The notes beneath the pieces were generated by a model. The model saw only the letters and a list, made by a program, of their open reading frames with translations, made no database searches and was not told the DNA's origin. Below, one piece after another: positions 19,104 to 39,199 of a stretch of DNA of 64,000 nt (position 1 is the first letter of the stretch; every line of letters starts with the position of its first letter). This DNA is from Ostrea edulis (taxonomy: Eukaryota): the NCBI RefSeq assembly GCF_947568905.1, contig NC_079165.1, forward strand, positions 21,452,001-21,516,000. The letters are read 5' to 3'. A program made the translations under genes and the position numbers.

Positions 19104-19459
19104 AGTAGTATAACGCGTCCCGATAGGGAGGTCAACTGAGTGCACTTTTTATGCAAATGAGGTCAAGTAAGGGCGTTTTTGATTGGTCAAGCGGTGTTGG
19201 GGTCAACGGAGTGCACTAGGACGGGGTCAACCCCAGCAGGGGTTGTAGAGCGGGTGAATAGACTGGCCTATGGCCGCTGGTCTATGATGCGGTACTTTCG
19301 CTTTGAGTTCCTGGAATGAGTTCCTGCTATTTTTCTGAAAATCGGTATAAAATCCAGTGAAATCCTGTGTATTAAATCTAAAAGAATAACAGTGTATTAA
19401 ATCTAAAAGAATAACACAAGGTTTTAAGTTGACATGTTTATTAAAGAACAATGGTACAA
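19104..19459 (+). repeat. Left terminal inverted repeat (356 bp)
   Basis: Reverse complement of 38844-39199; identical by eye except one mismatch at 19453/38850 near the inner end; contains 2x25-bp tandem repeat at 19367-19416. Confidence 0.96.
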
Positions 19460-19532
19460 GCATAGAACAATGCAAAACAATTCAATAAGCATAAAAACAG
19501 TTCAATAAGCATAACAGTTCAAGCACAGTCCA

Positions 19533-20450
19533 TTACTTTCTGCTGAGTTTCTTCTTCTTTTTTGGCCGTTCTTCAGTAGGTGCGGGTGGATTCCACATCT
19601 CTAACGGTGTGTATTCTCTCTTCACAGGGGGTTTTGAGCCAGGTACGGGTCCAATCATCGCATCTATCTCCGCTTGTTCTTCTGGACACTCACTAATCCA
19701 GTGTCCTATTTTTCCGCATTTGAAGCAAGGATCCTTTTGTTTGGTTTTCTTGCTGGTCTGTTGAGAATCTGCCGACCACGATTTCTTACTGGTCTGCGGA
19801 TAATCTGTTTTCTGTGGGCAATCCGGCGACCAATGTCCTGTTTCTCCACACGTGTAGCACGGGTTAGCAGTGTAATCTGGAGTGTATTCCTTCCTAGGTT
19901 TTTTAGAAGTCAGGTCTTCCAGCTTCTTCAGTAGGATTGTGGTATGATTTCCAATCTCATTACTCAGCACATTAATGCGGTTAACGATCCCGTCTAGTGT
20001 CGTGGTAATGATGGCGAAATCGGTCCTGCTCATGGGGGAATCTTCTCCGCCGAAGGGGGGTTTATCGTATAAGCCCATCTCCAGTCCCGTAGCGTCCTGT
20101 GAATCGGGAAAATAGAAGCCTAATCCCGGGTCTGTCGGATTCTGGCTAGGGAGGTAATCCGAGGTCTGGGCCATCTTCACTTGTCGAGCAACGTGGTCTG
20201 AAGGCGTGAGATTGAAGCTCGTGGTCTGGTTCGAGGTCTGGGCCATCTTCTTCTCTTCTCTTCTTCTTTGAGCAACGTAGTCTGGAGACGTGAGCAAGAA
20301 GTTCGAGGTCTTCCCCAGTTCAGTCTTCTGATCGTCACTCTTAGCTTTCTTCAGTTCAATGTAGTCTTTCTGTGGCCCCATCTCCTTCTGTACCAGCTGA
20401 TCTATTTTCTTCTGAGCTTTGTCCACAAATTCTAGTTGTTTCTGAGCCAT
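19533..20450 (-). CDS. Maverick accessory protein with two CCHC zinc knuckles (Gag nucleocapsid-like)
   Basis: CYTCGETGHWSPDC and CFKCGKIGHWISEC; TATAAAA at 20503-20509; AATAAA within TIR (19437-19442); C-terminal KKKKK. Confidence 0.85.
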   Translation of the reverse strand: MAQKQLEFVDKAQKKIDQLVQKEMGPQKDYIELKKAKSDDQKTELGKTSNFLLTSPDYVAQRRREEKKMAQTSNQTTSFNLTPSDHVARQVKMAQTSDYLPSQNPTDPGLGFYFPDSQDATGLEMGLYDKPPFGGEDSPMSRTDFAIITTTLDGIVNRINVLSNEIGNHTTILLKKLEDLTSKKPRKEYTPDYTANPCYTCGETGHWSPDCPQKTDYPQTSKKSWSADSQQTSKKTKQKDPCFKCGKIGHWISECPEEQAEIDAMIGPVPGSKPPVKREYTPLEMWNPPAPTEERPKKKKKLSRK

Positions 20451-20770
20451 GTCTTCTGGAAGGTGATTGAAGATCGAATGAGGACTGACACTGGGGCTCC
20501 GCTTTTATAGCCAGCAAAATGTCTAGACTATTCTGTCTCGTGAGGGGCACGTGGGGAGCACGTGGTTGCATCATCTTTTTCTGGAAAAACCGGTTTCAGC
20601 TAGAACATCGCGCGACCAGCGCGTGCTAGTGCACTAATTGAACTTGAAAAGCCGGTTTCTCGCGACCAGCGCGTGCTAGTGCCCATTGGTACACATTGAC
20701 TTTAGTGGAATGGAACTTATATTGGTGTTTAAAGTAGCCCTAAAAAGGGCTGTGCATGAAGTTTTTATTT

Positions 20771-21277
20771 TTAAAAATGGCCGGCTTCATACGCAGGTTC
20801 TTCTATATACACGTGTAAGTCATGATCTTCGGATATAATGTGTTGTACTAATTGTCGAGCTCTTCTCCCGGGGAAACGTATCTCTTCGACGGTTTCCCAC
20901 ATCCAGTGTGCATCCCAAAACAATACCCATACACTTCTCCGGTAACGTGGTTTCTCCAGTCGAATAAATCCCGATACTTTTTGAGTGCCGTTCAATAACG
21001 TGTAAAACTGGTAAATCATGTACTGTATGAGGGGGGAATTTTTCAGGTACATGTCACTTAAACGCAGGTAAATATCCTCCACTGTTTCATGTGACCGCAA
21101 TACATAGTCAAAACACCAATTTTTAGATCGGCCCCAGCGTAATCGATGGCGACATCTCTGTACTAAATTGGCCCAGATCTCCATCTCGTCTACATAATCT
21201 TCTACTATGGTTAAATTCTCCACTGGTTGTATTCCCTGGCCGCGGCGTCTCGCTCTTAAAATTCTCCGTGTATCCAT
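20771..21277 (-). CDS. Maverick accessory protein resembling an inactivated CRESS-virus Rep HUH endonuclease domain
   Basis: RSKNWCFDY (motif I-like), NGTQKVSGFIRLEKPR..DAHW (motif II region lacking His); AATAAA right after stop (20764-20769). Confidence 0.6.
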   Translation of the reverse strand: MDTRRILRARRRGQGIQPVENLTIVEDYVDEMEIWANLVQRCRHRLRWGRSKNWCFDYVLRSHETVEDIYLRLSDMYLKNSPLIQYMIYQFYTLLNGTQKVSGFIRLEKPRYRRSVWVLFWDAHWMWETVEEIRFPGRRARQLVQHIISEDHDLHVYIEEPAYEAGHF

Positions 21278-21416: not shown

Positions 21417-21749
21417 ATGGGGGGCAGTGCTACTACGAGAATAAATGGATATAGTTATGTACTACAATGTATGAACGTGGCCTTACATAATCCTCACATT
21501 CAAAATGCTCGTCAATTTGTACAACAGATGTCACCGGAGGTCAGAAATGTACATAGTTTTCAACGGATTGCTGATTCATTAGCGGAGAATACCAATACGG
21601 GACGTTTACTCATGATTTATTTGTATGCTGAGGAATTGAAACAGAATCTTCCAGACCAGATGAGTGACATTGATCGGATCTTACGCGATTGTCTACAAAA
21701 AGGATTCGTGGAACTGATTCGTATGAAAGGAATGGCTGCCCTGTTATAA
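21417..21749 (+). CDS. Mini Bcl-2-family (BAK-like) protein, 110 aa
   Basis: FQRIADSLAENTNTGRLLMIY resembles BAK FTKIASSLFESGINWGRVVAL (BH1); C-terminus resembles BH2 region; ATG 21417 follows TATA. Confidence 0.7.
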   Translation: MGGSATTRINGYSYVLQCMNVALHNPHIQNARQFVQQMSPEVRNVHSFQRIADSLAENTNTGRLLMIYLYAEELKQNLPDQMSDIDRILRDCLQKGFVELIRMKGMAALL

Positions 21750-21786
21750 AACAAGAACGTTTTAGAATTTTTTCATTTTGATCATC

Positions 21787-22140
21787 ATGGCTGAATTGAC
21801 CAACAACGTTCTTACCGCTGTATTACAGCATTTCGAGGACTACAAAGAATCGGTGAACAACGCTCGTAGCGCTGCATTACGGTGTATCAAGGACTGGAAA
21901 GAAAAACAGCCGTTGAGATATAAATTCGCCATGAAGTTGTTGATCTTTTGGGAATTTCCTATGACCTTATATGAATATTCCAGCGTTTGCAAGCATATAG
22001 CCGACAACCTGAACAGAGAGTCTGGATTGATCATGATTTATAACATGGACCAAGAATTTAGACGACGGGAACCTGAGAAGACTGGGGCGATTGTAGCGAT
22101 TACCGATCACTGGCTGGAAAAGGTGTATAAAAAAACCTAA
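21787..22140 (+). CDS. Helical paralogue 2 of tandem array (putative derived Bcl-2-like fold)
   Basis: EFPMTLYEY..HIADNL..GLIMIY..QEFRRREPE..AITDHWLEKVY shared with neighbours. Confidence 0.75.
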   Translation: MAELTNNVLTAVLQHFEDYKESVNNARSAALRCIKDWKEKQPLRYKFAMKLLIFWEFPMTLYEYSSVCKHIADNLNRESGLIMIYNMDQEFRRREPEKTGAIVAITDHWLEKVYKKT

Positions 22141-22168
22141 CCGTTTTCTTTTCCTTTATTCCTGGAGG

Positions 22169-22516
22169 ATGGCCAGCAGTGACAACATCGCAGAAAAAGC
22201 TCATAACCATGCATTAGAATGGGTGGAGAAAATGCAAGACGATACGGTGTTTCAAGCTGTTAAAAATTATCTGATAGCGGGGGTGTTTCCAATGACTCTG
22301 GACGAATATACAGATCTACGGAACCATGTGTACATCAATCTCTATAACGATGCGGGGTTGATGTTAATTTATGTCGCGGGGGAGGAATTCAAGAAACGCA
22401 TGCCTGAAAAAACCGCCGAGATTGAAAGTATCACCAAGGACTGGCTTCGAGAAGTATACATAAAGTGTGAAGAACTTAATTCATTTCATTTATTCCCGGA
22501 GGATGGCCAGCAGTGA
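22169..22516 (+). CDS. Helical paralogue 3 of tandem array
   Basis: VFPMTLDEY..GLMLIY..EEFKKRMPEK..SITKDWLREVY. Confidence 0.75.
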   Translation: MASSDNIAEKAHNHALEWVEKMQDDTVFQAVKNYLIAGVFPMTLDEYTDLRNHVYINLYNDAGLMLIYVAGEEFKKRMPEKTAEIESITKDWLREVYIKCEELNSFHLFPEDGQQ

Positions 22517-22808
22517 CCACATCACAGAGAAAGCGATAGTTTATGTATTGGATTATCTCACAGACATTCATTCTGGGCAGTTTGAATTTGTGTTACACTA
22601 TATGCGAGAAGAATTATTTCCCATCAGCTTAAAGGACTATCCATGTCTCTGTCAGTATTTGATCGAGAACCGGATCACCCCGCAAGCCTTAGTACTGATT
22701 CATTTAATGGGCCAGGAATTGAAACGAATTCGACCCACAGACAGAGCAGAAATCGAGAAAATCAGACTACGATGTCTTCGAGAGATGTACGTCAAGTTAA
22801 ACGTGTGA
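22503..22808 (+). CDS. Helical paralogue 4 of tandem array
   Basis: MASSDHITEKA start duplicates MASSDNIAEKA of paralogue 3 at DNA level; LFPISLKDY..ALVLIH..QELKRIRP..CLREMY. Confidence 0.75.
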   Translation: MASSDHITEKAIVYVLDYLTDIHSGQFEFVLHYMREELFPISLKDYPCLCQYLIENRITPQALVLIHLMGQELKRIRPTDRAEIEKIRLRCLREMYVKLNV

Positions 22809-22990
22809 CTTTTAATCTGGATCAAAATGAAGTGCATCTGTTACCCGAAGAAGACCGGACAAGTATCTGGATGACTGTAGCTGCTGATCGATATCGATTT
22901 CAACGCAGGATTCGAGAAATGGAAAAAATGTTGGACCCTATTTTAAAAAGACATGTGAATTGGTGTTGTGTGTGGGAGTTATGTATTTGA
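22772..22990 (+). CDS. PP1-binding eIF2alpha-phosphatase adaptor (GADD34 C-terminus / ASFV DP71L / HSV ICP34.5-like), 72 aa
   Basis: RVxF motif KRVTF followed by R..IW...AADRYRFQRRI; AATAAA at 23004-23009. Confidence 0.88.
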   Translation: MSSRDVRQVKRVTFNLDQNEVHLLPEEDRTSIWMTVAADRYRFQRRIREMEKMLDPILKRHVNWCCVWELCI

Positions 22991-23545: not shown

Positions 23546-24337
23546 ATGGCTACAAGAAGAGACCCGCTCTACAATTTTCAGACCTTGCCTGGATTCCGGT
23601 ACCGGCTGGTAGTGGTGGCTGAGGAACGGGTAGGGGAGAATTGGGTCGTGCGTTCTGAGAACGACCTGAGCACCTTCTCCCCTTTCGACCAGAGTGGGGT
23701 CCGTGAGATCATCTGCCGGGTGCGGGCCGAGTATGAAGGGAGGGCACCCCGCCGCCGCACCGCTCGAATCTCCACGGGTACGAGACCGCGCCGACGGGCC
23801 CCACAGCCACCCTCACCACCACCACCTTACTCCCCGGCGACGCCTACAACACCACCACCAGCGATCCCATCGGCACCAGTGGAATACAGCCCGGTGCCGA
23901 TGAGCGACTCACCAGCGTCACCGGTGGAGTATTCACCGCGGTCACCGTCCCCCGCACCACCTCCCAGTCCAGCCCAGAGTCCGTCACTGCTGGTGGCAGA
24001 CACAGCATCACCACCGAGACCAGCAGCCCCTGCAAGACCCCCACCACCTACCATCCGGTTTGCAGGGAGGACTCCACCACCACCGAGACCAACCCACGCA
24101 CCGGTGGCAACTCATCCCCCGAGGAACCACCCTATGACTGTCCCTGGCTGGGCAGATAGGGCGGTTCCCATCTGGTTTAAGTGTCCTGTCTGCTGGCAAG
24201 ACAGGGTACACTCTGGAATTACGTGCAGGGGATGTGGGCAGCGCCCAGCTTGCTGCTCGTGCGTGGAAGAGTTACAGGAGCGGCGACACACCCGGGGACG
24301 GTGCCCGTTATGCCGGTTTACCGGAAGCAGGGAATGA
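23546..24337 (+). CDS. Pro-rich protein with C-terminal C4C4 RING finger (putative viral E3 ligase)
   Basis: CPVC-x10-CRGC-x5-CCSC-x13-CPLC; PPPY and YSP repeats; ATATATA at about 23457; AATAAA at 24469. Confidence 0.75.
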   Translation: MATRRDPLYNFQTLPGFRYRLVVVAEERVGENWVVRSENDLSTFSPFDQSGVREIICRVRAEYEGRAPRRRTARISTGTRPRRRAPQPPSPPPPYSPATPTTPPPAIPSAPVEYSPVPMSDSPASPVEYSPRSPSPAPPPSPAQSPSLLVADTASPPRPAAPARPPPPTIRFAGRTPPPPRPTHAPVATHPPRNHPMTVPGWADRAVPIWFKCPVCWQDRVHSGITCRGCGQRPACCSCVEELQERRHTRGRCPLCRFTGSRE

Positions 24338-24596
24338 AAGTCGGTCCTTAGGACCAAACGGCCCTTTTCAGGGCCACCAACTTTTTTGAAAAGACACTTT
24401 TTATGGCAAAAATCAAGAAACACACAAGTTTGTTTTAAAAAAGTTTTATTAACACAAGTAATAGCTAGAATAAAGCTATAATAAAGTTACATTTTCTTGA
24501 CAATGTAAACATGTTTATGATACTGATAAGCAAAGTCACAAATCCATTGTCTATAATGAGCCCAATTGCCTCCGGCTAATCCATGAGGTTTCACCG

Positions 24597-25067
24597 TTAA
24601 ACAGTTACATTGTTGTACAATAGCATCCACCCAAGGTAGAGATAATACATCTCCTCGTAGATCCGTCTCCGCCATGGTGGTTGACAGGTCTCACAGGTAC
24701 ACGTTGACCAGGGTTCTTGACTGTAAGGACAATGTTGAAACAGCCGGGGATCAAACTTTCTCTGAGTCCAGCGCTCTCTAAACTCCTGACAGATCTCACA
24801 GGTACAGTCCTTATGTGCTATTTCTTCTTCAGGGGTGATGGTACAATGCTGCGGACACTTACACTCTAACCAGGGTTCTCTAGTGTGACCACAACATTTA
24901 TAGACAAAGGGATAATACGTCAGCTCTGCCAATCTCTCTATCCACTTCTGTTTGGCCAGGATGTTTTCTTTTTTATAATGAAAACAGCCACAAGTGCTCC
25001 AAGGTCCTCGGCAATACCCACACACTAGTACATCATTCTCATCATCCGCGTACCGTTCAAACGACAT
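24597..25067 (-). CDS. Cys/Trp-rich repeat protein of unknown function
   Basis: Three C-x5-PW-x2-C-x-C units; TATATA about 35 bp upstream of ATG 25067. Confidence 0.65.
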   Translation of the reverse strand: MSFERYADDENDVLVCGYCRGPWSTCGCFHYKKENILAKQKWIERLAELTYYPFVYKCCGHTREPWLECKCPQHCTITPEEEIAHKDCTCEICQEFRERWTQRKFDPRLFQHCPYSQEPWSTCTCETCQPPWRRRIYEEMYYLYLGWMLLYNNVTV

Positions 25068-25241: not shown

Positions 25242-25541
25242 ATGAGTCGCAGAGTAGGACCAGACCCTACAGTGAATGATTATTGTATCAAATGGGAGGA
25301 GGATTGGGAGCGAGAGATTACCCCGCCGGCCTCACGGGAGGCTCTTCCCCCACCACCCATGAGCCAGGATCTGCCCCCGTCAGAAGAAAACTGGGACGCA
25401 GAGATGGAAGTGGTGCAGCGGCCTCCGGGGAGATTGTTTTTTAAACACGGGTGGTTGCCTGTTTTTGTGTTTGACCACGAGCAACCCCCGGAGGAGCAGA
25501 AAAAGAAGAGAAGAAAGAAGAAGAAGAAGAACAGACAGTGA
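25242..25541 (+). CDS. Small acidic/basic protein of unknown function
   Basis: 99-aa ORF downstream of shared promoter motif; EEDWERE/EENWDAE repeats; basic C-terminus. Confidence 0.55.
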   Translation: MSRRVGPDPTVNDYCIKWEEDWEREITPPASREALPPPPMSQDLPPSEENWDAEMEVVQRPPGRLFFKHGWLPVFVFDHEQPPEEQKKKRRKKKKKNRQ

Positions 25542-25752
25542 GAGGGGGATAGAGAAGAAGAGAAGGAGAAGAAGGAGAAGAGAGAAGAAGAAGAGAAAAG
25601 ACCAAGAACAGAGAGAGAGAAAGAAAACAGCCCTTTTCAGGGCTACCCATTCTTTTTGAAAAGACATGGTTGATTACAATGAAAAGAAAAAAAAAAATTT
25701 TTTTCCCAACGTTTTATTAAACTCCAACTATGAACAATAACAATAACATAGT

Positions 25753-26250
25753 TTACAATACATTCAGTCTTTGACATTGACAAGTTTGTCCTTGATGGGT
25801 TCTCGGTTTTCGGAAGGTCTCTTTAAACCAATCCGCCACAAAACGATCGCGTTGTAAGGCCGTGCCTTTCCAGGGAAGTAACCATTCTTGTACGGTGCTT
25901 CTATGTCGATGGCGTTGATGTAAAAAATACACACAGTATTGTCCACAGACATCCGTATTCAAATCTTGATAACAATGGGTGTTATGAATCCAAGTCTCTC
26001 CGTGGCGTTGAATAAAGTCTTGGATGTCTTTATGGCTGGGAGGTAATCCGTAAGAATCAAAATATTCGACGGTAGGGCTACTCAAATACAAACAGACCCA
26101 ATGCGCTCCAGGGCGATCGTGAGGGTCTGTATTCACCACGATGGCTTTGTGATGAGGTAACAGCTCAGGTATGACATCTCGAGGATACACACCTGCAAAC
26201 GCCGGTCCTAAATCTCGTTGTAAAACATCTCTCAATTGCTGAGTATCCAT
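25753..26250 (-). CDS. Adenain-like cysteine maturation protease
   Basis: VVNTD...GAHWV, EYFDSYG, YQ..TDVCGQYC; AATAAA at 25713-25718. Confidence 0.95.
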   Translation of the reverse strand: MDTQQLRDVLQRDLGPAFAGVYPRDVIPELLPHHKAIVVNTDPHDRPGAHWVCLYLSSPTVEYFDSYGLPPSHKDIQDFIQRHGETWIHNTHCYQDLNTDVCGQYCVYFLHQRHRHRSTVQEWLLPWKGTALQRDRFVADWFKETFRKPRTHQGQTCQCQRLNVL

Positions 26251-26257: not shown

Positions 26258-27661
26258 TTAGTAATCGATGCTGACTTCTCGTTGTTTGTTGATTTCTAGC
26301 AGATTGTCGAACACGGCATACACCACACAGTTTAAGGTCCTGGCTACGTTGGCGGCAAATTGCACTTCCACTCTCAAGTTCCCCGTCTGTATGAGATGAA
26401 ATTTATCCGTCTGGACTTCTTGATCTTTCGTGAAATCCACACACCAGAGGGTGTAACCGTTTTTATACTCTTCCAGGGTAATGTCCGGAGCCCAGTCCTG
26501 GCCTAATTTTCCCAAGCCTTTGTACAGACTCAAATACGATCTCAGGTACTGATCGTCGGTGAAATTAGGTTCCAAAGGGCGGGTTTCCATCATTTCTCCA
26601 TTGATACTGATTTCTAATTTCTTGACTCTCTCATTTTGGAAATGAAAGGGGTTTCTGGTATTATCCCCATTAAAAGCCGCATTGTCCACAAAACCCAACA
26701 CGATCAGTTTAGGCATCTGTCCTTGAAACAGATGATCGGTGATTTTAGATTGGGTGCCACTAGGAATGGTGAAGGTTTTCACTTCCACTCGTCTCAATGG
26801 ATATTTCGCCGTTTGAGTACTCAGTTGCTGATTGATGAGATTAATGATACTCGGCACAGGTTTGACTTTCCTCACCCACAAGATCATACTTTGAATGGCC
26901 ACTTTCCCACTACTCCCGGCAGCGGTCATCATGTAGAACTGAGGTCGAGCGCGATTGAATCTGAGACGGACATCCAAGCCATTAGGGAGACATTTCTCTT
27001 GCTCAAACAAATCCAGATGTAATCGATCCATCAACACGATCTCCTTACTGTCTGTAATCTTCTCGTGACGTTTTCTCAACCCTACATTCTTGGAATCATC
27101 CGGATACTCGGGAGTCGGGATGACGGCCGCGATGTTGACTTTGTTAGACACTACTGCAAATTCCACAGGAGTTTGAGCCAGAGCTTCTAATTTGACCTCA
27201 TCCATATGTCCTGCCGTATCTTTTTCCCACAAGCTACAGGCTCTCATCTGGGTTTCCAGAGTCTTGGGTGCATAAGACAACAATTTCTCCAGATACGCTT
27301 TGTAGGGATAAGTATCCGTCCCCGGGGTAATGACTTTTCCATTGAGACTGACATCGATTTCACTGAACAAGGAATGGAGAATGTTATTCACGGGGGTGGA
27401 GGTCGAATTGCCTCCTGCGAGATTCGTTCCATTGGCTTTCGTGAATTTACATACCATCTGGAGATAAGTTTGGGATAAATCCAGATATTCATCTCCTTGT
27501 CCTTTGATTTCAAATTCAATCGGAGCCGTATCCGAGTTGAGGGTACTGGAAATGGGGTAATATTCCATCCATTTCGAATCTTCTAAAGTGACGTTGGTCG
27601 GGGGCACTTTAAACAGTTCTAAACTGCTGGTGCCACAAGCGCAAGATTCTCGGTGCATCAT
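26258..27661 (-). CDS. Major capsid protein (double jelly-roll), 467 aa
   Basis: [58 protein letters not shown] motifs of Polinton MCP. Confidence 0.95.
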
Positions 27662-30175: not shown

Positions 30176-30455
30176 GGTGAACTGATGAATCTGAAGAAGA
30201 TCGTTCCTGTTTTATACTCGGGCTCGCTAACGTCATTTGTGGACTAGGCATGACGTAGCCCACCAAAGAACTTAAGGTGACCATCCAAAAATCGCGATTG
30301 GGATCGCCTAAGGCTAACATGACGACCGAGGTGATAATGATGGTTAAACACAGGAATAATTGTGCAAAATACACAATTTCTGCTCGAGGGACTTTTTCAC
30401 CCAAGAAAGTCCACTGGTTGGTCATGGCTGAATGAGATCCGCTTGCGGAATCCAT
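30168..30455 (-). CDS. Small two-TM membrane protein
   Basis: IVYFAQLFLCLTIIITSVVMLAL and FWMVTLSSLVGYVMP hydrophobic segments. Confidence 0.7.
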   Translation of the reverse strand: MDSASGSHSAMTNQWTFLGEKVPRAEIVYFAQLFLCLTIIITSVVMLALGDPNRDFWMVTLSSLVGYVMPSPQMTLASPSIKQERSSSDSSVHHG

Positions 30456-31507: not shown

Positions 31508-32256
31508 TTTCCAATTTCACGTGATGTCTTTTTACTGGCCTCCCAGATATTTTTAGGGGTCATCATTCGTCTGGGAGTTTCATAGAACGATTGGTCAAAA
31601 CCCGAGATTTCTTGAAATCCGCTCTCCTCTTCCTCTAGAGGTCTAGGCGTACTGATTTTCCCTGGTTTGTCCATGGCTTTTATAACATCCCGATTGTTCA
31701 CATATCCTTTGGGAGCATGAGTCTCTTTTAACGCTTGAGCAAATTCCTCTAATCCCGTGGGGGGATCACGATGTCTTAAGGGTCTTTGTCGTTGGGCTTC
31801 GGTCATTAAATCCACAATATTGGAATCGGGAACCCTGCGTCCTCTATAGCTGATTTCTCCTTCTTTATTCCAAGTCACCACTTTGGATTTCTTGAGATGA
31901 TCGAGTAATAAACCTGCTTTCTTTCGACCCGGTTTATTGACGCTTTTGATAATCTGTTCCTCCAAGTCATCGGGTGCTGCGGCGGTTGTGGGTGGTGAGG
32001 CGGCACTGGCTGCACTGGTTGGGGAGGGCCGAGTGGCTGGGGTGGGATGTCGAGCTTGTTGTAAATATTGACGATAGCGATGAAGTTGATGACCGTACAA
32101 CCCCACTTTTTCTTTCTCGGTTAAATCATCTCGATGTTCAATCTCGTCCAAATCACTGCGTAAACCAATAGTCGAGGTAAATTCGGGAGGTTTAGGTAAT
32201 TTGCCTTTTAATTCGTTGAGCATCGCTTCCGGTACCAATACCATTTTTCGACTCAT
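31489..32256 (-). CDS. Conserved uncharacterised Maverick protein
   Basis: MSRKMVLVP start; VTWNKEGEISYRGRRVPDSNIVDL motif typical of Polinton gene next to integrase. Confidence 0.8.
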   Translation of the reverse strand: MSRKMVLVPEAMLNELKGKLPKPPEFTSTIGLRSDLDEIEHRDDLTEKEKVGLYGHQLHRYRQYLQQARHPTPATRPSPTSAASAASPPTTAAAPDDLEEQIIKSVNKPGRKKAGLLLDHLKKSKVVTWNKEGEISYRGRRVPDSNIVDLMTEAQRQRPLRHRDPPTGLEEFAQALKETHAPKGYVNNRDVIKAMDKPGKISTPRPLEEEESGFQEISGFDQSFYETPRRMMTPKNIWEASKKTSREIGKWLNLP

Positions 32257-32582
32257 GATTTCTTACAAATTTTGCCACACACAAACGAACCCAATCCTTT
32301 TTGGTGGATGAGTATACCTCGTCGTTTTTTCACGGGTTGAGTCCGGACTAAGCGTCTTAAGATGTGTTTCTTTCGACCCAGTTGTCGCTTCTGAGTAGGA
32401 TTGAGAGGAATCACCCCTTTTAATAGATTGTACACAATCTCACAAATCTTTAAAATGCAGTCATTGGAACAATGTTTCAACACCTCTGTCTTTAATTTGC
32501 TGGAATAGTGAGGAGCCGCTAACGTCTGCAAGAGCGGTAAATGAGGTCGTAATCGACATTCACACTTCTTCGTATGAGCCAT
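32253..32582 (-). CDS. Conserved small basic Maverick protein (109 aa)
   Basis: ICEIVYNLLKGVIPL..QKR..ILRRL..QKGLG; TATAAAA at 32614-32621; ATGA overlap with next gene. Confidence 0.8.
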   Translation of the reverse strand: MAHTKKCECRLRPHLPLLQTLAAPHYSSKLKTEVLKHCSNDCILKICEIVYNLLKGVIPLNPTQKRQLGRKKHILRRLVRTQPVKKRRGILIHQKGLGSFVCGKICKKS

Positions 32583-32622
32583 GATAATGAAGGGTGGGGC
32601 CCCTTCCCCCTCCTTTTTATAC

Positions 32623-33531
32623 CTAGTCCAGGACAATGGCACTCGGATGTTTAGGATCAAAACGCTTGTGATGGACGGTCTCTTCGTGACGATTGCGGTT
32701 CTCTCTCGCATTGAAGACCAGAGGGCAAAATTTACATTTATATTTCTTTTGCACCTGAACTGGTGTCGAGGTGGTTAAGGGTTGAAATTTCATGCTTCCA
32801 AAGGTATGAGCAAAACTCGGTAGAGCAGTATCACTGGTTCTGGAACTTCCTATAGGCCCATGCATGGGTCGTTCCATTTTCTTTTGAGCTAATCCGGCTT
32901 TCAGATTGGCTAACGTTTTAGTGGCCTTGGGGGGAGTGGCCTTGGGAAACGGCATCTTCACAATGAGAGGGGTTTTCTTTGGAGCCCAATTGGGAAACGG
33001 ATTCTTCATCCTGAGAGGTGTCTTCTTAGGGGATTTCTTAGGGGACTTCTTAGGTGTCTTCTTAGGTAAGCGAATAATGAGTTTAGGAATTCTCTGAGGC
33101 GATTTTTTAGCTTTCTTAGCCCGTGGTTTCTTGGTTTTCTTGGGTTGTCCCCCACGGGGCCTACGGCCTGTTTCCCATTTGAATAAATGACGGATAATGG
33201 TCCCTCCTAAGAATCCGGCGCCTCCTCGTTTCAAAATGGCTTTTTTACGCTCTTCTTCATTGGACTTCTTATCGGCAATGACACTCAAGTCTTGGCGATG
33301 GGATTGAATGAACCGCTGAGTGATTTTATTGCCTGGTAAGACGCCTCGCAATAAATTTCGAGCGCCCATCGCAAACCAGTTGAGTAAGGCTCTACGTCCT
33401 AATTCAATGAGATGGCTCCGTTGAACGGGATCCCGTTCCCGTTGTAAACGGCGTAACGTTTTGACTAATTTACTCTTCGCGGAAGGTCTACCCATGATGA
33501 AGACTGTCTTTCGAATGATACACCTGCCCAT
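32623..33531 (-). CDS. Paralogue of the small basic protein extended by SPKK/TPKK repeats and a C2H2 zinc finger
   Basis: NLLRGVLP core; KKTPKKSPKKSPKKTP; YKCKFCPLVFNARENRNRHEETVH. Confidence 0.75.
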   Translation of the reverse strand: MGRCIIRKTVFIMGRPSAKSKLVKTLRRLQRERDPVQRSHLIELGRRALLNWFAMGARNLLRGVLPGNKITQRFIQSHRQDLSVIADKKSNEEERKKAILKRGGAGFLGGTIIRHLFKWETGRRPRGGQPKKTKKPRAKKAKKSPQRIPKLIIRLPKKTPKKSPKKSPKKTPLRMKNPFPNWAPKKTPLIVKMPFPKATPPKATKTLANLKAGLAQKKMERPMHGPIGSSRTSDTALPSFAHTFGSMKFQPLTTSTPVQVQKKYKCKFCPLVFNARENRNRHEETVHHKRFDPKHPSAIVLD

Positions 33532-33544
33532 GATGTGACATTAT

Positions 33545-34183
33545 TTATACTCTCGGGGGCATGTGCACAGCCAAGTTGGTAAAGAGTTGACTTCTTAATC
33601 TTAAATCGTCCGACGTCTGAGGACTCAAGTCCACTAGTAAATACCCGTGAGGTACACGGGTGGCGTCCTCATAGGCTGGAAGTAAATGCGGCATTTGTAA
33701 TTGCCGACTTAACACCCCAATCTGAGATTTATCTCGAGGATTTTTAAACAGCACAAGATAGTGAGCATTCAGACTGATGGTACGATGTTGTACTGCTCGA
33801 TCAAACAGATTTTGTGTGATATAAATGACACTGGTATTGCGATGATGCGCTTTGCGCGTAAACCAGTCGACAATCGATTCGATGGCTTTACCTCCCATCA
33901 TATCATCAAAAATGAGTAGATGACGCGTACTGAGATCCGCCACTATCTGCTCATCGTCTTGAGGTATATTGTGGATAAAAGTGACCTTGTCCTGTAAGGA
34001 TTCGTACGCGGACTGCCATTCTCGATAACACCATACTATCTTTTCGGGAGGCGGTGCAATCCACTGCGTATTTTGTACCAGTTGCTTCACAAATTCCGTT
34101 TTACCCGATTTAGAGGGTCCAGCCACCACCATGGTAAATTCATGTTTCAACTGAAAAGGCTCAAGTGTCTCGTAGGTATACAT
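33545..34183 (-). CDS. A32/FtsK-like genome packaging ATPase
   Basis: Walker A GPSKSGKT, Walker B LLIFDD, HHRNTSVIYITQNLF, RTISLNAHY. Confidence 0.96.
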   Translation of the reverse strand: MYTYETLEPFQLKHEFTMVVAGPSKSGKTEFVKQLVQNTQWIAPPPEKIVWCYREWQSAYESLQDKVTFIHNIPQDDEQIVADLSTRHLLIFDDMMGGKAIESIVDWFTRKAHHRNTSVIYITQNLFDRAVQHRTISLNAHYLVLFKNPRDKSQIGVLSRQLQMPHLLPAYEDATRVPHGYLLVDLSPQTSDDLRLRSQLFTNLAVHMPPRV

Positions 34184-34223: not shown

Positions 34224-34751
34224 TTAACAAATAAAAATACGTACAGCTTGCTCAACACTATGTCTACAAATAGGACATTGTTTCAGTCCCGTAGCACATA
34301 TAGCACAAGTACATAAATGACCACAAGGTAAAAAAGCAATTCTCAAGTCTCGTTCTAAACAAATGTGACATTTCTGGGTACACATTGGATTCCCTGCCGC
34401 GTCTAAGGGTAAGCCTTCCCAATCGCAACCACTGTCTTTAGCGCGGGCATAGGCATTGAAGGCTTGTCGTACCCATTGTTTACCCTTATTACACTTCAGG
34501 TAAGGACAGTGAGGATACCAATAAGCATGTTGTATCCAAGGATTGTCGACAGCTCCCCAATGGTGAAGTCCAAAGTTGCAATAAAAACAGCACGTGTTAT
34601 CCCCGTACCCTTTGTAAAAGTATCCCGCTTCTGCAATGGTAGGTAATAGGTTCTGCAAGTGTTCGGGAGCATTTTCAAACGACGTTACTCGATCTGACAG
34701 TAGAGCATAACGTGGTGTACCCGGGTTATGTAGTGATTCGTAGTCCGTCAT
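34224..34751 (-). CDS. iap: Inhibitor of apoptosis (single BIR + RING)
   Basis: RVTSF..AEAGYFY..CCFYC..W..DNPWIQHAYWYPHCPYL; CHIC..LPCGHLCTCAICA..CPICR. Confidence 0.93.
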   Translation of the reverse strand: MTDYESLHNPGTPRYALLSDRVTSFENAPEHLQNLLPTIAEAGYFYKGYGDNTCCFYCNFGLHHWGAVDNPWIQHAYWYPHCPYLKCNKGKQWVRQAFNAYARAKDSGCDWEGLPLDAAGNPMCTQKCHICLERDLRIAFLPCGHLCTCAICATGLKQCPICRHSVEQAVRIFIC

Positions 34752-34786: not shown

Positions 34787-37700
34787 TTAATACCCGTAAG
34801 GCAGCGTGTCATAATTATGAATACGTTGACGTTTATCATACACCATGCGGTATTTCTTCACCAGAGGAATGGTTCGCACATCATGTTGGCGGGTTCGTTG
34901 AATAAAGTGCGGATAGTTGACATGGACTTCTTCTTCTTCTCCTTTTAACATTTTTTCCAACGTATCGAGAGACACGACTCTAGAGGCACGATAATTGAGT
35001 GTCAATCCTTTGACTTTGCAGACAGATTTTTCCCCCTGGGTCTCGTATGCATAATTTTTGGGCCCGCCCGACATGTACTTGATGATACGATCTCCACCCA
35101 ATTCATCGGTCCAGCCGCCTAAACTGTTGATAATGGTCGGATTGAACTGGGTCTCGTCGTGCTGATAGATGATACTATCCGTGTCAAAGTATAAGACACG
35201 CTCTCCCAAAGGCTGTAACGTCTCGTACAAATGTAAACGAGCATGAGCTGTTGTAAAACACGCCAGCACCACGTTTCCAAAGGGACAGTCTTCTAAAAAT
35301 TCTTCTTTCTCCTGATAATTGATCAGCATCATATCACATTCGGGGCGTTCACGATTTTCTAAGAGTTCGATGCCTTTGACTTCTAAAGTGGCATCTTGTA
35401 ATTTCTGTTGTAATTCTTCTTCTTCCGTGAGATACAGGGATTTGGGTAATTGTAATCGTTTAGCAAATTTTCCCCACAAACAATTTAAAAAGAGTTTGGC
35501 AATGGTTCTTCGGACCGGATTTTTCTGGATGTCTGCCGGATTCATAGCAATGCCTTCTCGTTGCTGAATTTCCTCAATGTAATGTTGCTGGTGTTGGGCT
35601 GTTTGACAATCCTCGGGGAATCCGGAAGCTTCTTGTTTAATTTTCAAAAAGGTGTTGATATACGCTCGAAATAAGTGGTCACTGGTTTTCTCAAAATGCC
35701 AAACTTCGTAAATGCGGTCGAGACGATAGCCTAGATCTAATGCTTTGTGAAGTTCGGTGGTCACCCAGGTGCCCGTGAGACTGCGTTCAGAATCGGTGTG
35801 CTGGCACCGCTCGTCGGGTCCTAAGTTGCGCTGTTCCGCACAGGTGCGGCATAAGGGAAAGAGTAATTTACCCCCGGTCTTGTAAGGTAATACGGGGTGA
35901 TACAGCTCTCGGGGTGGGAGGACACGACAACGAATGAGCCCGAAATAGTCTCTGACATCGGTGAAATGGCTGGTGATGACTTGGGGATGTTGGACGGGAA
36001 ATGGCTTGTATTTCAACACGTACGGGTACAGGGAACAGACATCCACGTATCGCATGTCACCCTCCTCACAATACAGTCGTGTAGCATTGGTCCGGCCTCC
36101 GTACAAAGCGTCACGGGGATTCAAATGATCTTGTATATCGACTCCTTGTAAAAATTCCTGTAAGTCGGGATTGGTCTGGGTCTGACGATCAAACTCGTGT
36201 TCCCATATGCTCACGACTGTATAGCCTTGGTCTTCTAAAGCACTGGCTCGTTTTAAGGTGTCCAGGTAGAGGTCTTGATACGTATGCTGAACACGATGAG
36301 GATGCATGTCAGTCAACAGATTCGGGAAACAGGTGGGACAGCCGTGCCAGTAACAGCCATAGAATTCGTACACGATACGAGATTCCTCATCATACCCATC
36401 TACTGTATAGGGTCCAAGCGTGACTTCGCCCCCATTTCTAGCATGTCGTATGCAGTGATGTTGATGTTCTAACCAGGCGAGCCATCGGCAAGCTTTAGCT
36501 GAATATCGTCGTGCTGGCCGGTAGCCCATATTGGGAATGATGGCGATGGTATTTTCAACCATGAATCCTCGTCGGTAGGCTAAATTAGCCGTGCTGGCAA
36601 ACGTGATGGATTCTTGAAAGGGGTCTACTTCCACCAGATCAAACAGGGTGGATTTGAAATGGGCACAACAGCGGCGTAAAATATCCACGTCCGAGATGCA
36701 GTAAGCTAAGAATTCTTTCTGGAAATCAAAGACTTTGCCCTCTTGTTGATGGTACCAAGTATAGAAGGCTTCACGATTGGCGGTGGACATATCGTCAGGA
36801 TTGTAGAAATGAGCGGCCGGGTAAGGACCCACATACTGCTGGTTCTCTGTCGTGTTGAAAAAGTGCGGGAAATAGCCTTTTTTCAATTCCGTTAATCCGA
36901 AAGCAGAGGGCATCTTGGCAAGAGCAAAGGGTAGAAAGTTGTAAGAATCGATGAATCTCAACCCCAAGACTTGCATGGATAAGATTTTACTCCCGTTCAG
37001 GATGACGGTGGGTTTGATACACGCCGTGTGCACCAGGTAATTCAAAATAAACTGCCCATCGTATCCTTTGAAATTGTGGGCAATGATGGTGGCTTCATCG
37101 TGTTTGAGTTCCACATGGCCTTGCTCATCGGTCTCGCTCTGTAAGAGCCATTCCATAAACTGTTTTAACGTGTCGGGTCCTTGAAATAGGAAGCGGCGTT
37201 GTGATCCGAATCCTTCACAATGAGAACAGGGCTTGTCGATATCCACACTGTCGCAATGTTGACACACACGTTCTGCCACGCATAAATTGGGGATGTGAAT
37301 ACCGTTTTCCTGACTGCATTCGAAATCGTAATAAATGTATATTTTCAACTCCTCTTCTTCTTTTTCTTTCTTAGGTTTGGGTTTCGTCTGTACAAAGCAG
37401 TGATGAGGCATGGTGACGACTTTGTGACAGATGCGGCATTCGGTTTGACCCCCACACGCGTGGCGTTTTAATAATTGCTTGGACATCCATTTCTGACACT
37501 GGTTACACCGCCCCATTAAACTGCAGACCGTGGTCGTTGTATTACTGCTGTAAGGTTTCAAGTGGGTCTTGTAACAAGCTGCATTTCTGAAAAATCCCTT
37601 ACAATGAGGGCAATTCGTCTGAGTCCCGTCCGGGGTACAGGGGGTATCGGCTAAACAAAATGAGCATCGATGAGGACAGACGGTCCGATGATCTTCAATG

Positions 37701-38746
37701 TGACTGTAACCAACATCGCAATAATCGCAATAGTATCCGTTTTCCGTCACTCCAGGCATAGACACAATGGCATCGTAATGCTCGTTATCCAGCAGGATAT
37801 TCAAACAAGTCCCGTGCCCCGGTCCTTTGTAAATAGGTTCCAGTCGTAAACGAGTTGTATTCGTTTTGAATTGAAATATTTTCAATCGATACTGTGGGGC
37901 GAGCGCGTGCTGTAATTGCTCCCATTCACGCGGCCCACACGACTGGTTCATAACACACCCAGCTTGTTCCATCAAGGCTATCGCTTCTCGTTTCTGGTCG
38001 AGCGTTTTGAAATCCCCTTTTCTCATGCGTAACCATTTCGTTTCCCATGCCGGGTCGTTTGATTTCTGGCTGTGTAGACGTGCTACCACAATAGCCCGGG
38101 ACAAGCAGAGAGAATCCTCAGGATTTTGAATGCGAACGATCGCTCTCTTGGAGTTTTTGAATTTCTCCTTATCCACGTGTAGATGTTTTTTCTTAGTGCA
38201 CCCGCTGCCTTGTGGATATTTGACATGGAAAAAATCCATCTGCACTGCCCCGTCGGTGATTAGGAATTCCTTTTTAGATTGCTGGACGGATTCTATTTTG
38301 TTCAGAATTTTGTCCTCGTTGAGCTGATTGGACTGCGTAAATTCGTACCAAATAGCTGAATCCAGAGACGGGTGCCGAATATTTAAACGTAGATAATCAT
38401 TGGGATTGCACTGCATTTCCTGTTTCACATTTTTTAACATATCCCGGAAGAGCCGACGAATGAAGGCTGTATTTTCTTTCTCTGGAATAGGTTTGAAAGC
38501 AACATTGTAGACATTTTCCTTGACTTTAAATTTCCGTGATTGACGTCCTCGTTCCAGTTGAATTTTGTAATAATCCGAAATGAGTTTCTTTTTCCCCCCT
38601 CCCCGCTGTAAATACTGTAGTCGTCGTTGATTCTCTCTGCGGAGTTGTAATTCACGCTGCCGTTGTCTGTTCAGCTGATCATTCAAAAATCTCAATCGCT
38701 GTTCAATATAACTCCGTGGAAGTCCAGTAGGTAACTTGTCTGACAT
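34787..38746 (-). CDS. polB: Protein-primed family B DNA polymerase (N-terminal TP-like and OTU-like regions, Zn-rich region, Vsr-like insert)
   Basis: YDFEC, HNFKGYD, YVDVCSLYP, KLFLNCLWGKF, YFDTDS, GPKNYAY, KVKG; uninterrupted 1319-aa ORF; TATA at 38783-38795. Confidence 0.98.
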   Translation of the reverse strand: MSDKLPTGLPRSYIEQRLRFLNDQLNRQRQRELQLRRENQRRLQYLQRGGGKKKLISDYYKIQLERGRQSRKFKVKENVYNVAFKPIPEKENTAFIRRLFRDMLKNVKQEMQCNPNDYLRLNIRHPSLDSAIWYEFTQSNQLNEDKILNKIESVQQSKKEFLITDGAVQMDFFHVKYPQGSGCTKKKHLHVDKEKFKNSKRAIVRIQNPEDSLCLSRAIVVARLHSQKSNDPAWETKWLRMRKGDFKTLDQKREAIALMEQAGCVMNQSCGPREWEQLQHALAPQYRLKIFQFKTNTTRLRLEPIYKGPGHGTCLNILLDNEHYDAIVSMPGVTENGYYCDYCDVGYSHIEDHRTVCPHRCSFCLADTPCTPDGTQTNCPHCKGFFRNAACYKTHLKPYSSNTTTTVCSLMGRCNQCQKWMSKQLLKRHACGGQTECRICHKVVTMPHHCFVQTKPKPKKEKEEEELKIYIYYDFECSQENGIHIPNLCVAERVCQHCDSVDIDKPCSHCEGFGSQRRFLFQGPDTLKQFMEWLLQSETDEQGHVELKHDEATIIAHNFKGYDGQFILNYLVHTACIKPTVILNGSKILSMQVLGLRFIDSYNFLPFALAKMPSAFGLTELKKGYFPHFFNTTENQQYVGPYPAAHFYNPDDMSTANREAFYTWYHQQEGKVFDFQKEFLAYCISDVDILRRCCAHFKSTLFDLVEVDPFQESITFASTANLAYRRGFMVENTIAIIPNMGYRPARRYSAKACRWLAWLEHQHHCIRHARNGGEVTLGPYTVDGYDEESRIVYEFYGCYWHGCPTCFPNLLTDMHPHRVQHTYQDLYLDTLKRASALEDQGYTVVSIWEHEFDRQTQTNPDLQEFLQGVDIQDHLNPRDALYGGRTNATRLYCEEGDMRYVDVCSLYPYVLKYKPFPVQHPQVITSHFTDVRDYFGLIRCRVLPPRELYHPVLPYKTGGKLLFPLCRTCAEQRNLGPDERCQHTDSERSLTGTWVTTELHKALDLGYRLDRIYEVWHFEKTSDHLFRAYINTFLKIKQEASGFPEDCQTAQHQQHYIEEIQQREGIAMNPADIQKNPVRRTIAKLFLNCLWGKFAKRLQLPKSLYLTEEEELQQKLQDATLEVKGIELLENRERPECDMMLINYQEKEEFLEDCPFGNVVLACFTTAHARLHLYETLQPLGERVLYFDTDSIIYQHDETQFNPTIINSLGGWTDELGGDRIIKYMSGGPKNYAYETQGEKSVCKVKGLTLNYRASRVVSLDTLEKMLKGEEEEVHVNYPHFIQRTRQHDVRTIPLVKKYRMVYDKRQRIHNYDTLPYGY

Positions 38747-38843
38747 GATGTCGAAAGTGACACCCAATGCACCGCGCGCCGCTTTATATATATTACCTGT
38801 AGACAGCGCTGGGTAAAACTAGGGACCGTGCCAGCTCTGGGGA

Positions 38844-39199
38844 TTGTACTATTGTTCTTTAATAAACATGTCAACTTAAAACCTTGTGTTATTCTTTTAG
38901 ATTTAATACACTGTTATTCTTTTAGATTTAATACACAGGATTTCACTGGATTTTATACCGATTTTCAGAAAAATAGCAGGAACTCATTCCAGGAACTCAA
39001 AGCGAAAGTACCGCATCATAGACCAGCGGCCATAGGCCAGTCTATTCACCCGCTCTACAACCCCTGCTGGGGTTGACCCCGTCCTAGTGCACTCCGTTGA
39101 CCCCAACACCGCTTGACCAATCAAAAACGCCCTTACTTGACCTCATTTGCATAAAAAGTGCACTCAGTTGACCTCCCTATCGGGACGCGTTATACTACT
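38844..39199 (-). repeat. Right terminal inverted repeat (356 bp)
   Basis: Reverse complement of left TIR; followed by TSD ACTGTA. Confidence 0.96.

Follow-up and report, generated by a model that had tools for sequence, protein, structure and literature searches.

A young, already damaged Maverick/polintovirus insertion in Ostrea edulis with candidate histone-type stem-loops behind accessory genes

The stretch of the Ostrea edulis genome that was analysed here (the window; 64,000 nucleotides of contig NC_079165.1) contains a Maverick/Polinton element of 20,096 bp at positions 19104..39199. It is bounded by two TIRs of 356 nt (19104..19459, starting with AGTAGT, and 38844..39199, ending with ACTACT) and flanked by a perfect target-site duplication (TSD), ACTGTA, at 19098..19103 and 39200..39205. 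The TIRs differ by one mismatch in 356 nt (95% interval 0.007-1.6%), located at position 350 from the end. A 6-bp TSD together with an (AGT)2/(ACT)2 end motif is given as a Maverick criterion in PMC8097293, and the element also encodes a protein-primed PolB and a retroviral-type integrase, both recognized by Pfam and by catalytic motifs, a double-jelly-roll capsid protein, an A32 ATPase and an adenain protease. The preliminary description of the locus, which had reported a Maverick with a perfect TSD and TIRs identical except for one inner-edge base, was accurate on these points. It had also stated that many genes carry their own TATA box, and this agrees with a strict TATAWA motif 30-60 nt upstream of 10 of the 25 ORF starts examined, against a chance rate of about 2.4% per start (p ~6e-11, computed for n = 23). 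Its statement that AATAAA signals delimit gene blocks holds in part: the named sites all exist, and six fall within a range of 2 nt inside to 36 nt beyond a stop codon, but the element contains 34 AATAAA motifs in total. Approximately 23-25 ORFs cover 85% of the element, which differs from its flanks in GC content (45% vs 35%) and in the CpG observed/expected ratio (0.91 vs 0.61). In the right flank, a very high-copy repeat starts at 39360.

The core genes are all located on the minus strand. The protein-primed DNA polymerase B of 1319 aa (34787..38746; Pfam DNA_pol_B_2, E 6.8e-57) displays exonuclease and polymerase motifs and probably carries a VSR-type insert, as suggested by a weak DUF559 match (E 0.0014) and an internal nuclease-like stretch, EFYGCYWHG. 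It is accompanied by an A32-type packaging ATPase (33545..34183; Pox_A32, E 5.7e-7), an integrase with D-D-E motifs and a chromodomain (30422..31507; rve, E 1.3e-10; Chromo, E 3.5e-8), and an adenain-type cysteine protease with its catalytic motifs (25753..26250; Peptidase_C5, E 2.5e-4). The major capsid protein (26258..27661) was recognized from its predicted double-jelly-roll model (pLDDT 76), which in Foldseek matched Sputnik (E 3e-17) and also iridovirus, PBCV-1 and mavirus proteins. A basic protein of 231 aa (27741..28436) is probably a core protein, judged by position and composition only. The ORF at 28611..29612, with an in-frame stop at 28926-28928, is what we take to be the penton or minor capsid gene on the basis of position, size and a motif; its family is conserved, 325-341 aa long and situated at the place expected for a minor capsid protein. 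Capsid and penton profiles did not match PDB sequences. The minus strand further encodes a protein of 305 aa that has a basic tail and two CCHC zinc knuckles (19533..20450; zf-CCHC, E 3e-15), two small orphans of 149 and 95 aa, the latter with hydrophobic stretches (29726..30455), and three ORFs of 255, 152 and 302 aa without a confident family (31489..33531). NCBIfam profiles produced no real match to the element ORFs, and ESM Atlas provided no usable match for two element proteins.

The accessory genes include four tandem helical paralogues of 101-117 aa on the plus strand (21417..22808, with ORFs at 21417-21749, 21787-22140, 22169-22516 and 22503-22808), each preceded by a TATA-like box 38-46 nt upstream. 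Structural modelling suggests that a minimal Bcl-2 fold is probable for them: of the 20 rows with at least 90 aligned residues, 17 were of Bcl-2 type, and the best match was ASFV A179L (Z 7.4, rmsd 3.3, 100 aligned residues; Z is below 8, for a helical protein). Foldseek searches of the model against PDB and BFVD returned no match at E<=0.001, a word search with the third paralogue also returned none, and Pfam detected Bcl-2 weakly in the first paralogue (E 0.0066) and in 1 of 36 members of the protein family. Next to this array lies a 72-aa DP71L/GADD34-like PP1 adaptor (22772..22990, plus strand), which contains the RVxF motif and the conserved C-terminal domain of the DP71L/ICP34.5/GADD34 proteins and matches ASFV DP71L (E 4.9e-5), PPP1R15B (E 1.1e-4) and Pfam PP1c_bdg (E 1.7e-5); an in-frame upstream ATG at 22643 is a possible alternative start. 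A -1 frameshift at GTTAAAC (22796-22802), a heptamer that is also listed for equine arteritis virus in a table of PMC3835772, could in principle join the fourth helical gene to the adaptor. We consider this improbable, because the downstream RNA folds worse than shuffled sequences (z +0.6 to +1.6) and an ATG of its own is available to the adaptor.

On the minus strand, an IAP with BIR and RING domains is encoded at 34224..34751 (BIR, E 1.7e-15; zf-C3HC4_3, E 9.6e-12), and a 156-aa Cys-rich orphan that is very variable between copies at 24597..25067. Three further accessory genes are referred to here as genes A, B and C. Gene A (23546..24337, plus strand) encodes a Pro-rich protein of 263 aa with a C-terminal RING (zf-RING_2, E 0.0011), gene B (25242..25541, plus strand) an acidic protein of 99 aa with a basic C-terminus, and gene C (20771..21277, minus strand) a 168-aa orphan with weak similarity to Viral_Rep (PF02407, E 0.015). 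Genes A and B have an upstream motif in common, at 23427 and 25153. Single-letter variants in the accessory block (40 of 836) comprised 11 synonymous, 24 non-synonymous, 1 stop and 4 non-coding changes, and purifying selection is not clearly visible in them.

Each of the genes A, B and C is followed by a sequence resembling the stem-loop at the 3' end of histone messages (RF00032), a feature that the preliminary description did not mention. Stem-loop A (24355..24400, plus strand; stem 24360-24375) reaches 40.2 bits (E 7.4e-9), above the Rfam gathering score of 34, and follows the gene A stop at a distance of 22 nt, with ACCAA and a T-run/GAAAAGA box after it. Stem-loop B (25624..25669, plus strand; stem 25629-25644), which is separated from the gene B stop by 87 nt, scores 32.0 bits (E 8.6e-6), below the gathering score, but passes a strict scan; it is followed by ACCCA and a T-run/GAAAAGA box, and its stem is identical to that of the H1 gene of L029. 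Stem-loop C (20710..20756, minus strand; stem 20751-20736) follows the gene C stop at 19 nt and is the weakest of the three (22.3 bits, E 0.036); it too is below the gathering score and passes the strict scan, the interval from stop to stem contains an AATAAA, and a downstream box is not evident. All three are in sense orientation and just 3' of a stop, in unlike flanks. Such hairpins were absent from the 44 kb of flanking DNA and from the rest of the 64 kb, and none appeared in 400 simulated elements; a loose stem-loop pattern did not discriminate (4 matches vs 1.46 expected). Stem-loops A and B match animal H1, H2A and H4 genes in stem, ACCAA/ACCCA and T-run/AAAAGA box. Across eight related sequences, every one of the 48 stem cells is paired, and the sole change is compensatory; this covariation concerns one pair and was reached by 13 of 500 shuffles. 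Poly(A) signals are found 94 and 105 nt after stem-loop A, and ATTAAA 72 nt after stem-loop B. The same hairpin occurs behind other non-histone ORFs on the host-type contigs L033 and L037, and the peptide tails of another family of helical genes (P0182) fit it as well. Two stem-loop patterns had no match among IMG/VR viral contigs, a protein scan of these contigs for L039 found no relatives, and PMC3256202 does not mention the stem-loop.

The element carries two lesions. The penton gene is interrupted by the in-frame stop at 28926-28928, whereas 11 of 13 close relatives in the penton cluster, one of them 98% identical, read through this site and the other two end before it. Judged from these sequences, the stop is private to this copy, and a conserved or programmed read-through is unlikely because the stop is not conserved in the relatives. 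The second lesion affects a macrodomain gene, of which a 62-aa ORF remains (24487..24675, minus strand): both ends are kept, about 110 codons are gone at ~24575 and the domain is therefore not whole, compared with homologues of 176-191 aa. Thus, the earlier count of about 23 ORFs uninterrupted apart from one penton stop was correct about the penton and overlooked the macrodomain, and the term "intact" is not supported, since one of the two lesions hits a core virion gene. An intact Maverick as defined in PMC8097293, with unbroken conserved ORFs, would not include this copy, owing to its penton stop.

The family to which the element belongs is large. In both of two DNA runs, read depth is flat across all 29 bins of the element, with medians of 127x and 192x and a single-copy depth of about 1.4x, which translates into 81-105 and 130-166 copies per haploid genome, respectively, for a genome of 887-1140 Mb. 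The 1.56-fold difference between the runs may reflect library bias, because one library was PCR-based and the element is GC-rich. Overall, roughly 80-170 full-length, near-identical copies are present per haploid genome. The element differs from the majority contigs of the two runs by ~0.5-0.6%. The capsid cluster comprises 51 proteins, 96.7-99.8% identical among the members listed, with siblings in this range on eight chromosome-length records. The gene A cluster comprises 54 proteins (87.7-100% identical among the members listed), and the named members among those listed are all from Ostrea edulis. Indels (12 of 44) keep the frame inside ORFs, and by our reading the frame-changing ones lie outside them. 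The near-identical TIRs, the small difference from the majority contigs and the capsid siblings bear out the earlier view that the insertion is very recent, and a family in which all copies are heavily mutated is not what was found. We regard the identity, youth and damage of the insertion as nearly certain, and it is probable, with somewhat less confidence, that it represents a young, already defective member of a high-copy, recently active Maverick/polintovirus family.

The closest known systems are vertebrate Mavericks (Barreat and Katzourakis 2021, PMC8097293) and adintoviruses (Starrett et al. 2021, PMC8502044), which according to these studies have the TIRs, the 6-bp TSD and the (AGT)2/(ACT)2 ends in common with the oyster element and span a size range, 12.7-24.6 kb, into which it falls. 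Also alike are the polymerase-ATPase module, the integrase-penton-core-capsid-protease module and the presence of an accessory region, and the gene order resembles vertebrate/Beta adintovirus maps. Bcl2 and IAP cargo is already known from adintoviruses (PMC8502044). The Alpha and Beta adintovirus markers PLA2X and GasderminX/Cupiennin had no counterpart in so far as Pfam found neither PLA2 nor gasdermin in 25 ORFs. The oyster element differs by its mollusc host, by having all core genes on one strand, and by a family of about 100 near-identical copies, compared with a maximum of 38 intact copies reported for vertebrates in PMC8097293. Further extras are the four tandem Bcl-2-like genes, the DP71L-like adaptor, the macrodomain and the histone-type 3' ends, none of which was found by a word search of the Maverick/adintovirus literature. 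The pPolB2 Polintons that Jeong et al. (10.1101/2023.08.22.554363) describe from molluscs, which have a VSR nuclease insert, come from the same host group, and the oyster polymerase may resemble theirs through its internal nuclease-like stretch; the passages on them in that study do not treat accessory genes.

The host-control set of ASFV includes an IAP, which the oyster BIR-RING protein parallels. The 72-aa adaptor with its RVxF motif is also like the short form of ASFV DP71L (70-72 aa; PMC5346070), and A179L is the best Bcl-2-fold match, although the oyster proteins are shorter, with five helices and lacking a membrane tail, and are present as four paralogues, and the kit sits in a 20-kb integrating element. 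With the metazoan histone mRNA 3' end as described in RF00032 and PMC3763545, the element shares the 6-bp stem, the UUUY loop, ACCAA/ACCCA, intronless genes, a short distance from stop to hairpin for A and C (19-22 nt, vs 28-33 nt in five histone genes) and, in stem-loops A and B, a purine box 13-20 nt downstream. Differences are the 87 nt between stop and hairpin for B and the encoded proteins, which are not histones.

From known Maverick biology, the element would be copied by the protein-primed polymerase from its terminal repeats, and the integrase would insert copies with a 6-bp duplication. The anatomy of the left-hand accessory block suggests a role in host-cell control, in which the DP71L-like adaptor would recruit PP1 and thereby keep translation on, while the IAP and the four Bcl-2-fold proteins would block cell death. 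We infer that the messages of genes A and B, and perhaps C, undergo SLBP/U7 histone-type 3' processing, i.e., that they would end at the stem-loop, be cut by the U7 snRNP and be bound by SLBP. Such messages may be made, translated and destroyed along with S phase, and there are hints that the three genes are timed to the DNA-copying phase of the host. Siblings with an unbroken penton would probably be able to build particles, and the copy at 19104..39199 would be moved or packaged only with their help.

The use of stem-loops A and B as 3' ends appears somewhat favoured, and has to be weighed against the view that the hairpins are idle passengers acquired from histone genes of the host or from histone-like repeats, with the three genes polyadenylated at nearby AATAAA or ATTAAA signals. 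Poly(A) signals are indeed close to all three, stem-loop C is degenerate, and the hairpin may move about easily because it is present behind other non-histone ORFs on L033 and L037. On the other hand, three separate hairpins with unlike flanks, all in sense and directly behind stops, two of them followed at the right spacing by a purine box and with no further hairpin in the 64 kb, are not readily explained as passengers, and Pfam detected no histone-coding remnant in any element ORF. We consider idle passengers rather unlikely. Far less credible is the proposal that this copy is an intact, virus-competent provirus, with the penton stop due to an assembly error or read-through and a short macrodomain ORF that is normal for the family. 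At positions 22201 and 24668, at least 95% of the reads in each of the two runs disagree with this copy, a sign that it contains private letters or errors, and the penton site is not among the read variants listed; however, the stop is not conserved in relatives, the macrodomain lacks ~110 codons compared with its 176-191-aa homologues, and in run X7 the family-depth majority contig stops at 24576, right at the macrodomain gap.

For the family as a whole, we rate the existence of a particle stage as evenly balanced, and it is plausible that the lineage still replicates as a virus. Alternatively, the family could be an intracellular, self-copying transposon that spreads through the germ line by its polymerase and integrase and forms no infectious particle today, its capsid and host-control genes being retained from a viral past or serving inside one cell. 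In agreement with this possible but less favoured explanation, in neither raw-read run did read ends accumulate at the right terminus, which is a weak test, and protein scans of IMG/VR viral contigs with element genes or their relatives found no relatives. Moreover, a penton-broken copy exists with near-perfect ends, and passages of PMC8097293 and 10.1101/2023.08.22.554363 state that Maverick/Polinton virions have not been observed. Against it, capsid sequences from coral viromes are reported to group with polintoviruses of corals (PMC11131425). The element itself retains complete capsid, protease and ATPase genes, and close relatives keep a whole penton. A combined anti-apoptosis and anti-shut-off kit is typical of productively replicating viruses, and its presence here fits such a lifestyle.

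The insertion itself is ordinary, as both young Mavericks in oysters and cargo of the Bcl2/IAP type are expected; its most unusual feature is the putative histone-type stem-loops behind three non-histone accessory genes. According to PMC3763545, no mature metazoan mRNAs other than histone messages carry a stem-loop end in place of poly(A). We tentatively propose that the histone 3'-end pathway has been captured by animal polintoviruses, and perhaps by further DNA viruses of invertebrates (L039), such that early regulatory genes would produce poly(A)-less, SLBP-bound messages, activation would be linked to S phase or to the egg and early-embryo stages, and the "non-histone genes with histone stem-loops" of invertebrates would largely be viral cargo. 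If true, a histone-type end on the genes of a virus-like element would be a new and testable route of host exploitation, and stem-loop-ended messages would escape poly(A) RNA-seq, which could be one reason why expression of Mavericks is seldom observed. It is a long-standing question whether the Mavericks of animals produce virions, and a near-identical family of about 100 copies in a farmed oyster, equipped with an ASFV-like anti-death and anti-shut-off kit, is a good place to look; it would then provide a live system for catching the long-sought Maverick virion.

The element at 19104-39199 is 20,096 bp long, starts with AGTAGT, ends with ACTACT and is flanked on each side by a copy of ACTGTA, so that the perfect target site duplication reported in the preliminary description is found at both borders. 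Its terminal inverted repeats (TIRs) span 356 nt and differ only at position 350, again as described. The GC content is 45% vs 35% in the flanks, there is no CpG depletion (observed/expected 0.91, against 0.61 in the flanks) and ORFs cover 85% of the sequence. Pfam detects a protein-primed polymerase, an integrase with chromodomain, an A32 ATPase and an adenain protease, all with their catalytic motifs, and a 467-aa ORF is predicted to fold as a double jelly roll capsid (model pLDDT 76; match to the Sputnik capsid at E 3e-17). These features identify the element as a Maverick as defined in PMC8097293. The polymerase carries a nuclease-like insert (DUF559, E 0.0014) resembling the VSR insert of mollusc pPolB2 (available part of 10.1101/2023.08.22.554363), a likeness that concerns the insert alone. 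Every AATAAA site listed earlier is present, and the proposal that many genes have their own TATA box holds for 10 of 25 starts examined, which show a strict TATAWA 30-60 nt upstream, far above chance.

The right flank contains host genes for C1q-domain proteins (44118-45163 and 47610-48578, both -) and for a protein with a death effector domain and TRADD-N (57667-61560, +), and the element is thus a chromosomal insertion. Just to its left, a 237-nt repeat with two tRNA-like units (18629-18701 and 18866-18938, -) is probably a tRNA-derived SINE. A very high-copy repeat (39360-39620) starts 160 nt to the right, where depth reaches about 5,700x in its bin vs 130-190x in the element. The window also contains tandem arrays with units of 48 nt (1-2050), 26 nt (10626-11790), 37 nt (43491-43752) and 39 nt (45839-46432), a palindrome with 237-nt arms (14876-15360), a nested inverted repeat (53716-54681) and a distant 255-nt inverted pair with 99% identity (14157-14411/49755-50009).

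The copy had been called intact, with ORFs uninterrupted apart from a penton stop. The stop is real (28926-28928, in frame), but a second gene is also broken. Relatives of the putative penton protein are 325-341 aa long; 11 of the 13 members of the closest cluster read through the stop site and the other two end before it, which argues for a lesion and not a family trait, and one read-through relative is 98% identical to both halves of the broken gene. The stop may alternatively be an assembly error. A 62-aa ORF (24487-24675, -) aligns in two pieces to a metagenomic protein of 176 aa, covering its residues 3-32 and 142-173. The same two-end alignment recurs in other full-length homologues at the loci that were examined, 17 out of 26. 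By sequence comparison, these homologues are assigned to the macrodomains (PDB match at E 1.6e-4; Pfam E 0.0032 for one of three). About 110 codons are absent from the macrodomain gene at about 24575. A family-depth contig of DNA read run X7 stops at 24576, which suggests that other family copies differ here. We conclude that the element is a member of the Maverick family but not an intact one.

The insertion is very recent, as proposed. The single TIR mismatch corresponds to 0.28% divergence (95% interval 0.007-1.6%), and 14 compared members of the 51-member capsid cluster, on eight chromosome-length records, are 96.7-99.8% identical, several being identical proteins at four loci. The nearest named relatives of the capsid are Ostrea edulis proteins (98-99% identical), and the exact sequence of the Pro-rich RING gene (gene A, 23546-24337, +) occurs in a 54-protein cluster in which all 14 named members among those listed are from O. 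edulis. Going by the names on these matches, the host is probably O. edulis. RefSeq models of sibling capsids mostly omit residues 346-388 (26498-26626, -; in-frame GT-AG with weak splice signals), and this may be a gene-prediction artefact or may reflect a cryptic intron.

Four of 24 listed sequencing runs were examined. In two deep DNA runs (1,382 and 1,313 Mb of reads), depth was even across 29 of 29 element bins, with medians of 127x and 192x. If the sequenced organism is O. edulis, as is probable, and its genome size lies between 887 and 1,140 Mb, the upper bound being our assumption, these depths translate into 81-105 copies per haploid set in the first run and 130-166 in the second. The available text of PMC9679248 gives genome sizes of 887 Mb and 1 Gb and lists 2.44 Mb of Maverick sequence, a total that fits a family of about 100 copies. 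The 1.56-fold depth gap may be real or due to library bias, as one library was PCR-based; after correction, 4 of the 40 variants listed differ in frequency between the runs. This copy differs by about 0.5-0.6% (summed by hand) from 16 listed majority contig pieces. Family copies also vary structurally, by a 62-nt duplication (20584-20645), an intergenic replacement (29658-29726) and a skip of 72 nt close to where the polymerase gene starts (38612-38685). A Cys-rich orphan (24597-25067, -) holds 18 of the 40 variants, 14 of them non-synonymous, and is either fast-evolving or no true gene.

Three genes of the element are followed, in sense, by histone-type stem-loops (Rfam RF00032): gene A by hairpin A (24355-24400, +; 40.2 bits, above gathering), the acidic gene B (25242-25541, +) by hairpin B (25624-25669, +; 32.0 bits) and the 168-aa gene C (20771-21277, -) by hairpin C (20710-20756, -; 22.3 bits), at distances of 22, 87 and 19 nt from the stop codons. 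A scan of the whole window found no further RF00032 stem-loop, and a strict stem-loop scan returned the same three, with none in the flanks or in 400 simulated elements. Reference animal histone genes were taken by pattern scan from contaminated MAG contigs. Hairpin A matches H2A and H4 hairpins and hairpin B an H1 hairpin, both including the T-run and the AAAAGA box; hairpin C has no evident box. Stem pairing is kept in 48 of 48 cells and the sole variable pair is altered on both sides, in a small sample of related sequences. A 24-nt motif that does not recur in the element lies upstream of both gene A (23427-23450, +) and gene B (25153-25176, +); it is followed by a TATA-like stretch and is probably a common promoter.

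Among nine distinct hairpin-bearing MAG contigs examined, histone genes precede the hairpin in six and non-histone ORFs in three. The six bacterial MAG contigs (L027, L029, L031, L034, L035 and L038) encode animal H1, H2A, H2B and H4, as read from translations, and are host contamination. The other three carry, directly before the stem-loop, a MADF-domain ORF (L033:132-860, -) or a 99-aa orphan (L037:90-451, -), or a RING-finger gene with a 41-bit stem-loop 19 nt on (L039:141-788, -). L039 is a gene-dense, intronless, virus-like 9.4-kb contig from a bacterial MAG, in which the RING gene lies beside a kinase and large orphans and has upstream CACGTG boxes like gene C; tblastn found no similarity between L039 and the element.

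The element also encodes putative host-control proteins. Four tandem paralogues of 101-117 aa (21417-22808, +) belong to a small helical family with 30 matches. A confidently predicted structure (pLDDT 90) has ASFV A179L as its best match (Z 7.4 and rmsd 3.3 over 100 aligned residues). Of the 20 structural matches with at least 90 aligned residues, 17 are of Bcl-2 type, counting A46, which we take to have a Bcl-2 fold; Z values below 8 are no proof for a helical protein, and Foldseek gave no significant match with the model. In another family, the helical gene (P0144, P0179-P0183) ends in NSPF, and the tail peptides of the read-through variant P0182 fit two successive histone stem-loops, as judged from the peptide. 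Pfam identifies an IAP (34224-34751, -), and a 72-aa ORF at 22772 matches ASFV DP71L (E 4.9e-5) and PPP1R15B. Short DP71L (70-72 aa) brings PP1 to eIF2-alpha, according to the available text of PMC5346070. This PP1 adaptor overlaps the fourth helical gene in a different frame (22772-22808), with a GTTAAAC heptamer but no downstream structure, and the relatives P0145 and P0160 fuse the helical domain in frame with the RVxF part.

Adintoviruses that carry Bcl2 and IAP genes have been described before, and the maps in PMC8502044 include elements from mussel and pearl oyster; 'GADD34' and 'macro' are absent from the accessible supplement text, where figure labels may use other names. The DP71L literature matches listed mention neither 'polinton' nor 'adintovirus'. 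Paper listings and partial texts on Polintons in O. edulis and bivalves, histone stem-loops and SLBP, among them PMC11131425, PMC10294476, 10.1101/2025.02.07.637071 and PMC3835772 and with few subscription journals, gave no account of these features. The predicted histone-type gene ends and the DP71L-like adaptor appear to be new.

Structure, core genes, lesions, copy number and hairpins are direct observations, and we consider it reasonably probable that they belong to a Maverick that copies itself, uses S-phase histone-type gene ends and deploys host-control proteins. That the hairpins are idle is unlikely in our view, given their sense orientation and confinement to the element; poly(A) signals near all three and the scores of hairpins B and C below gathering count against histone-type ends. 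A family living purely as an intracellular transposon is somewhat more conceivable, yet still doubtful: the element has a predicted capsid, while no read-end pile-up was seen at its terminus, a weak test with sheared libraries and protein-capped ends. Both of these alternatives can hold together. That this copy is an intact provirus is very improbable in view of the penton stop and the broken macrodomain gene.

In the favored reading of a self-copying Maverick, the element would, following established Maverick biology, copy itself from its ends and insert by its integrase. According to the available text of PMC3763545, SLBP binds the histone hairpin, is required for histone mRNAs to be exported and translated, and is made at S-phase entry and destroyed at S-phase end. 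From their anatomy, the element hairpins would be bound by SLBP, and expression of the genes in front of them would be confined to S phase, the best time for a 20-kb DNA element to copy itself. The PP1 adaptor, the IAP and the Bcl-2-like proteins would sustain both translation and survival of the host cell, and because its penton gene is broken, this copy would rely on its siblings for any particle.
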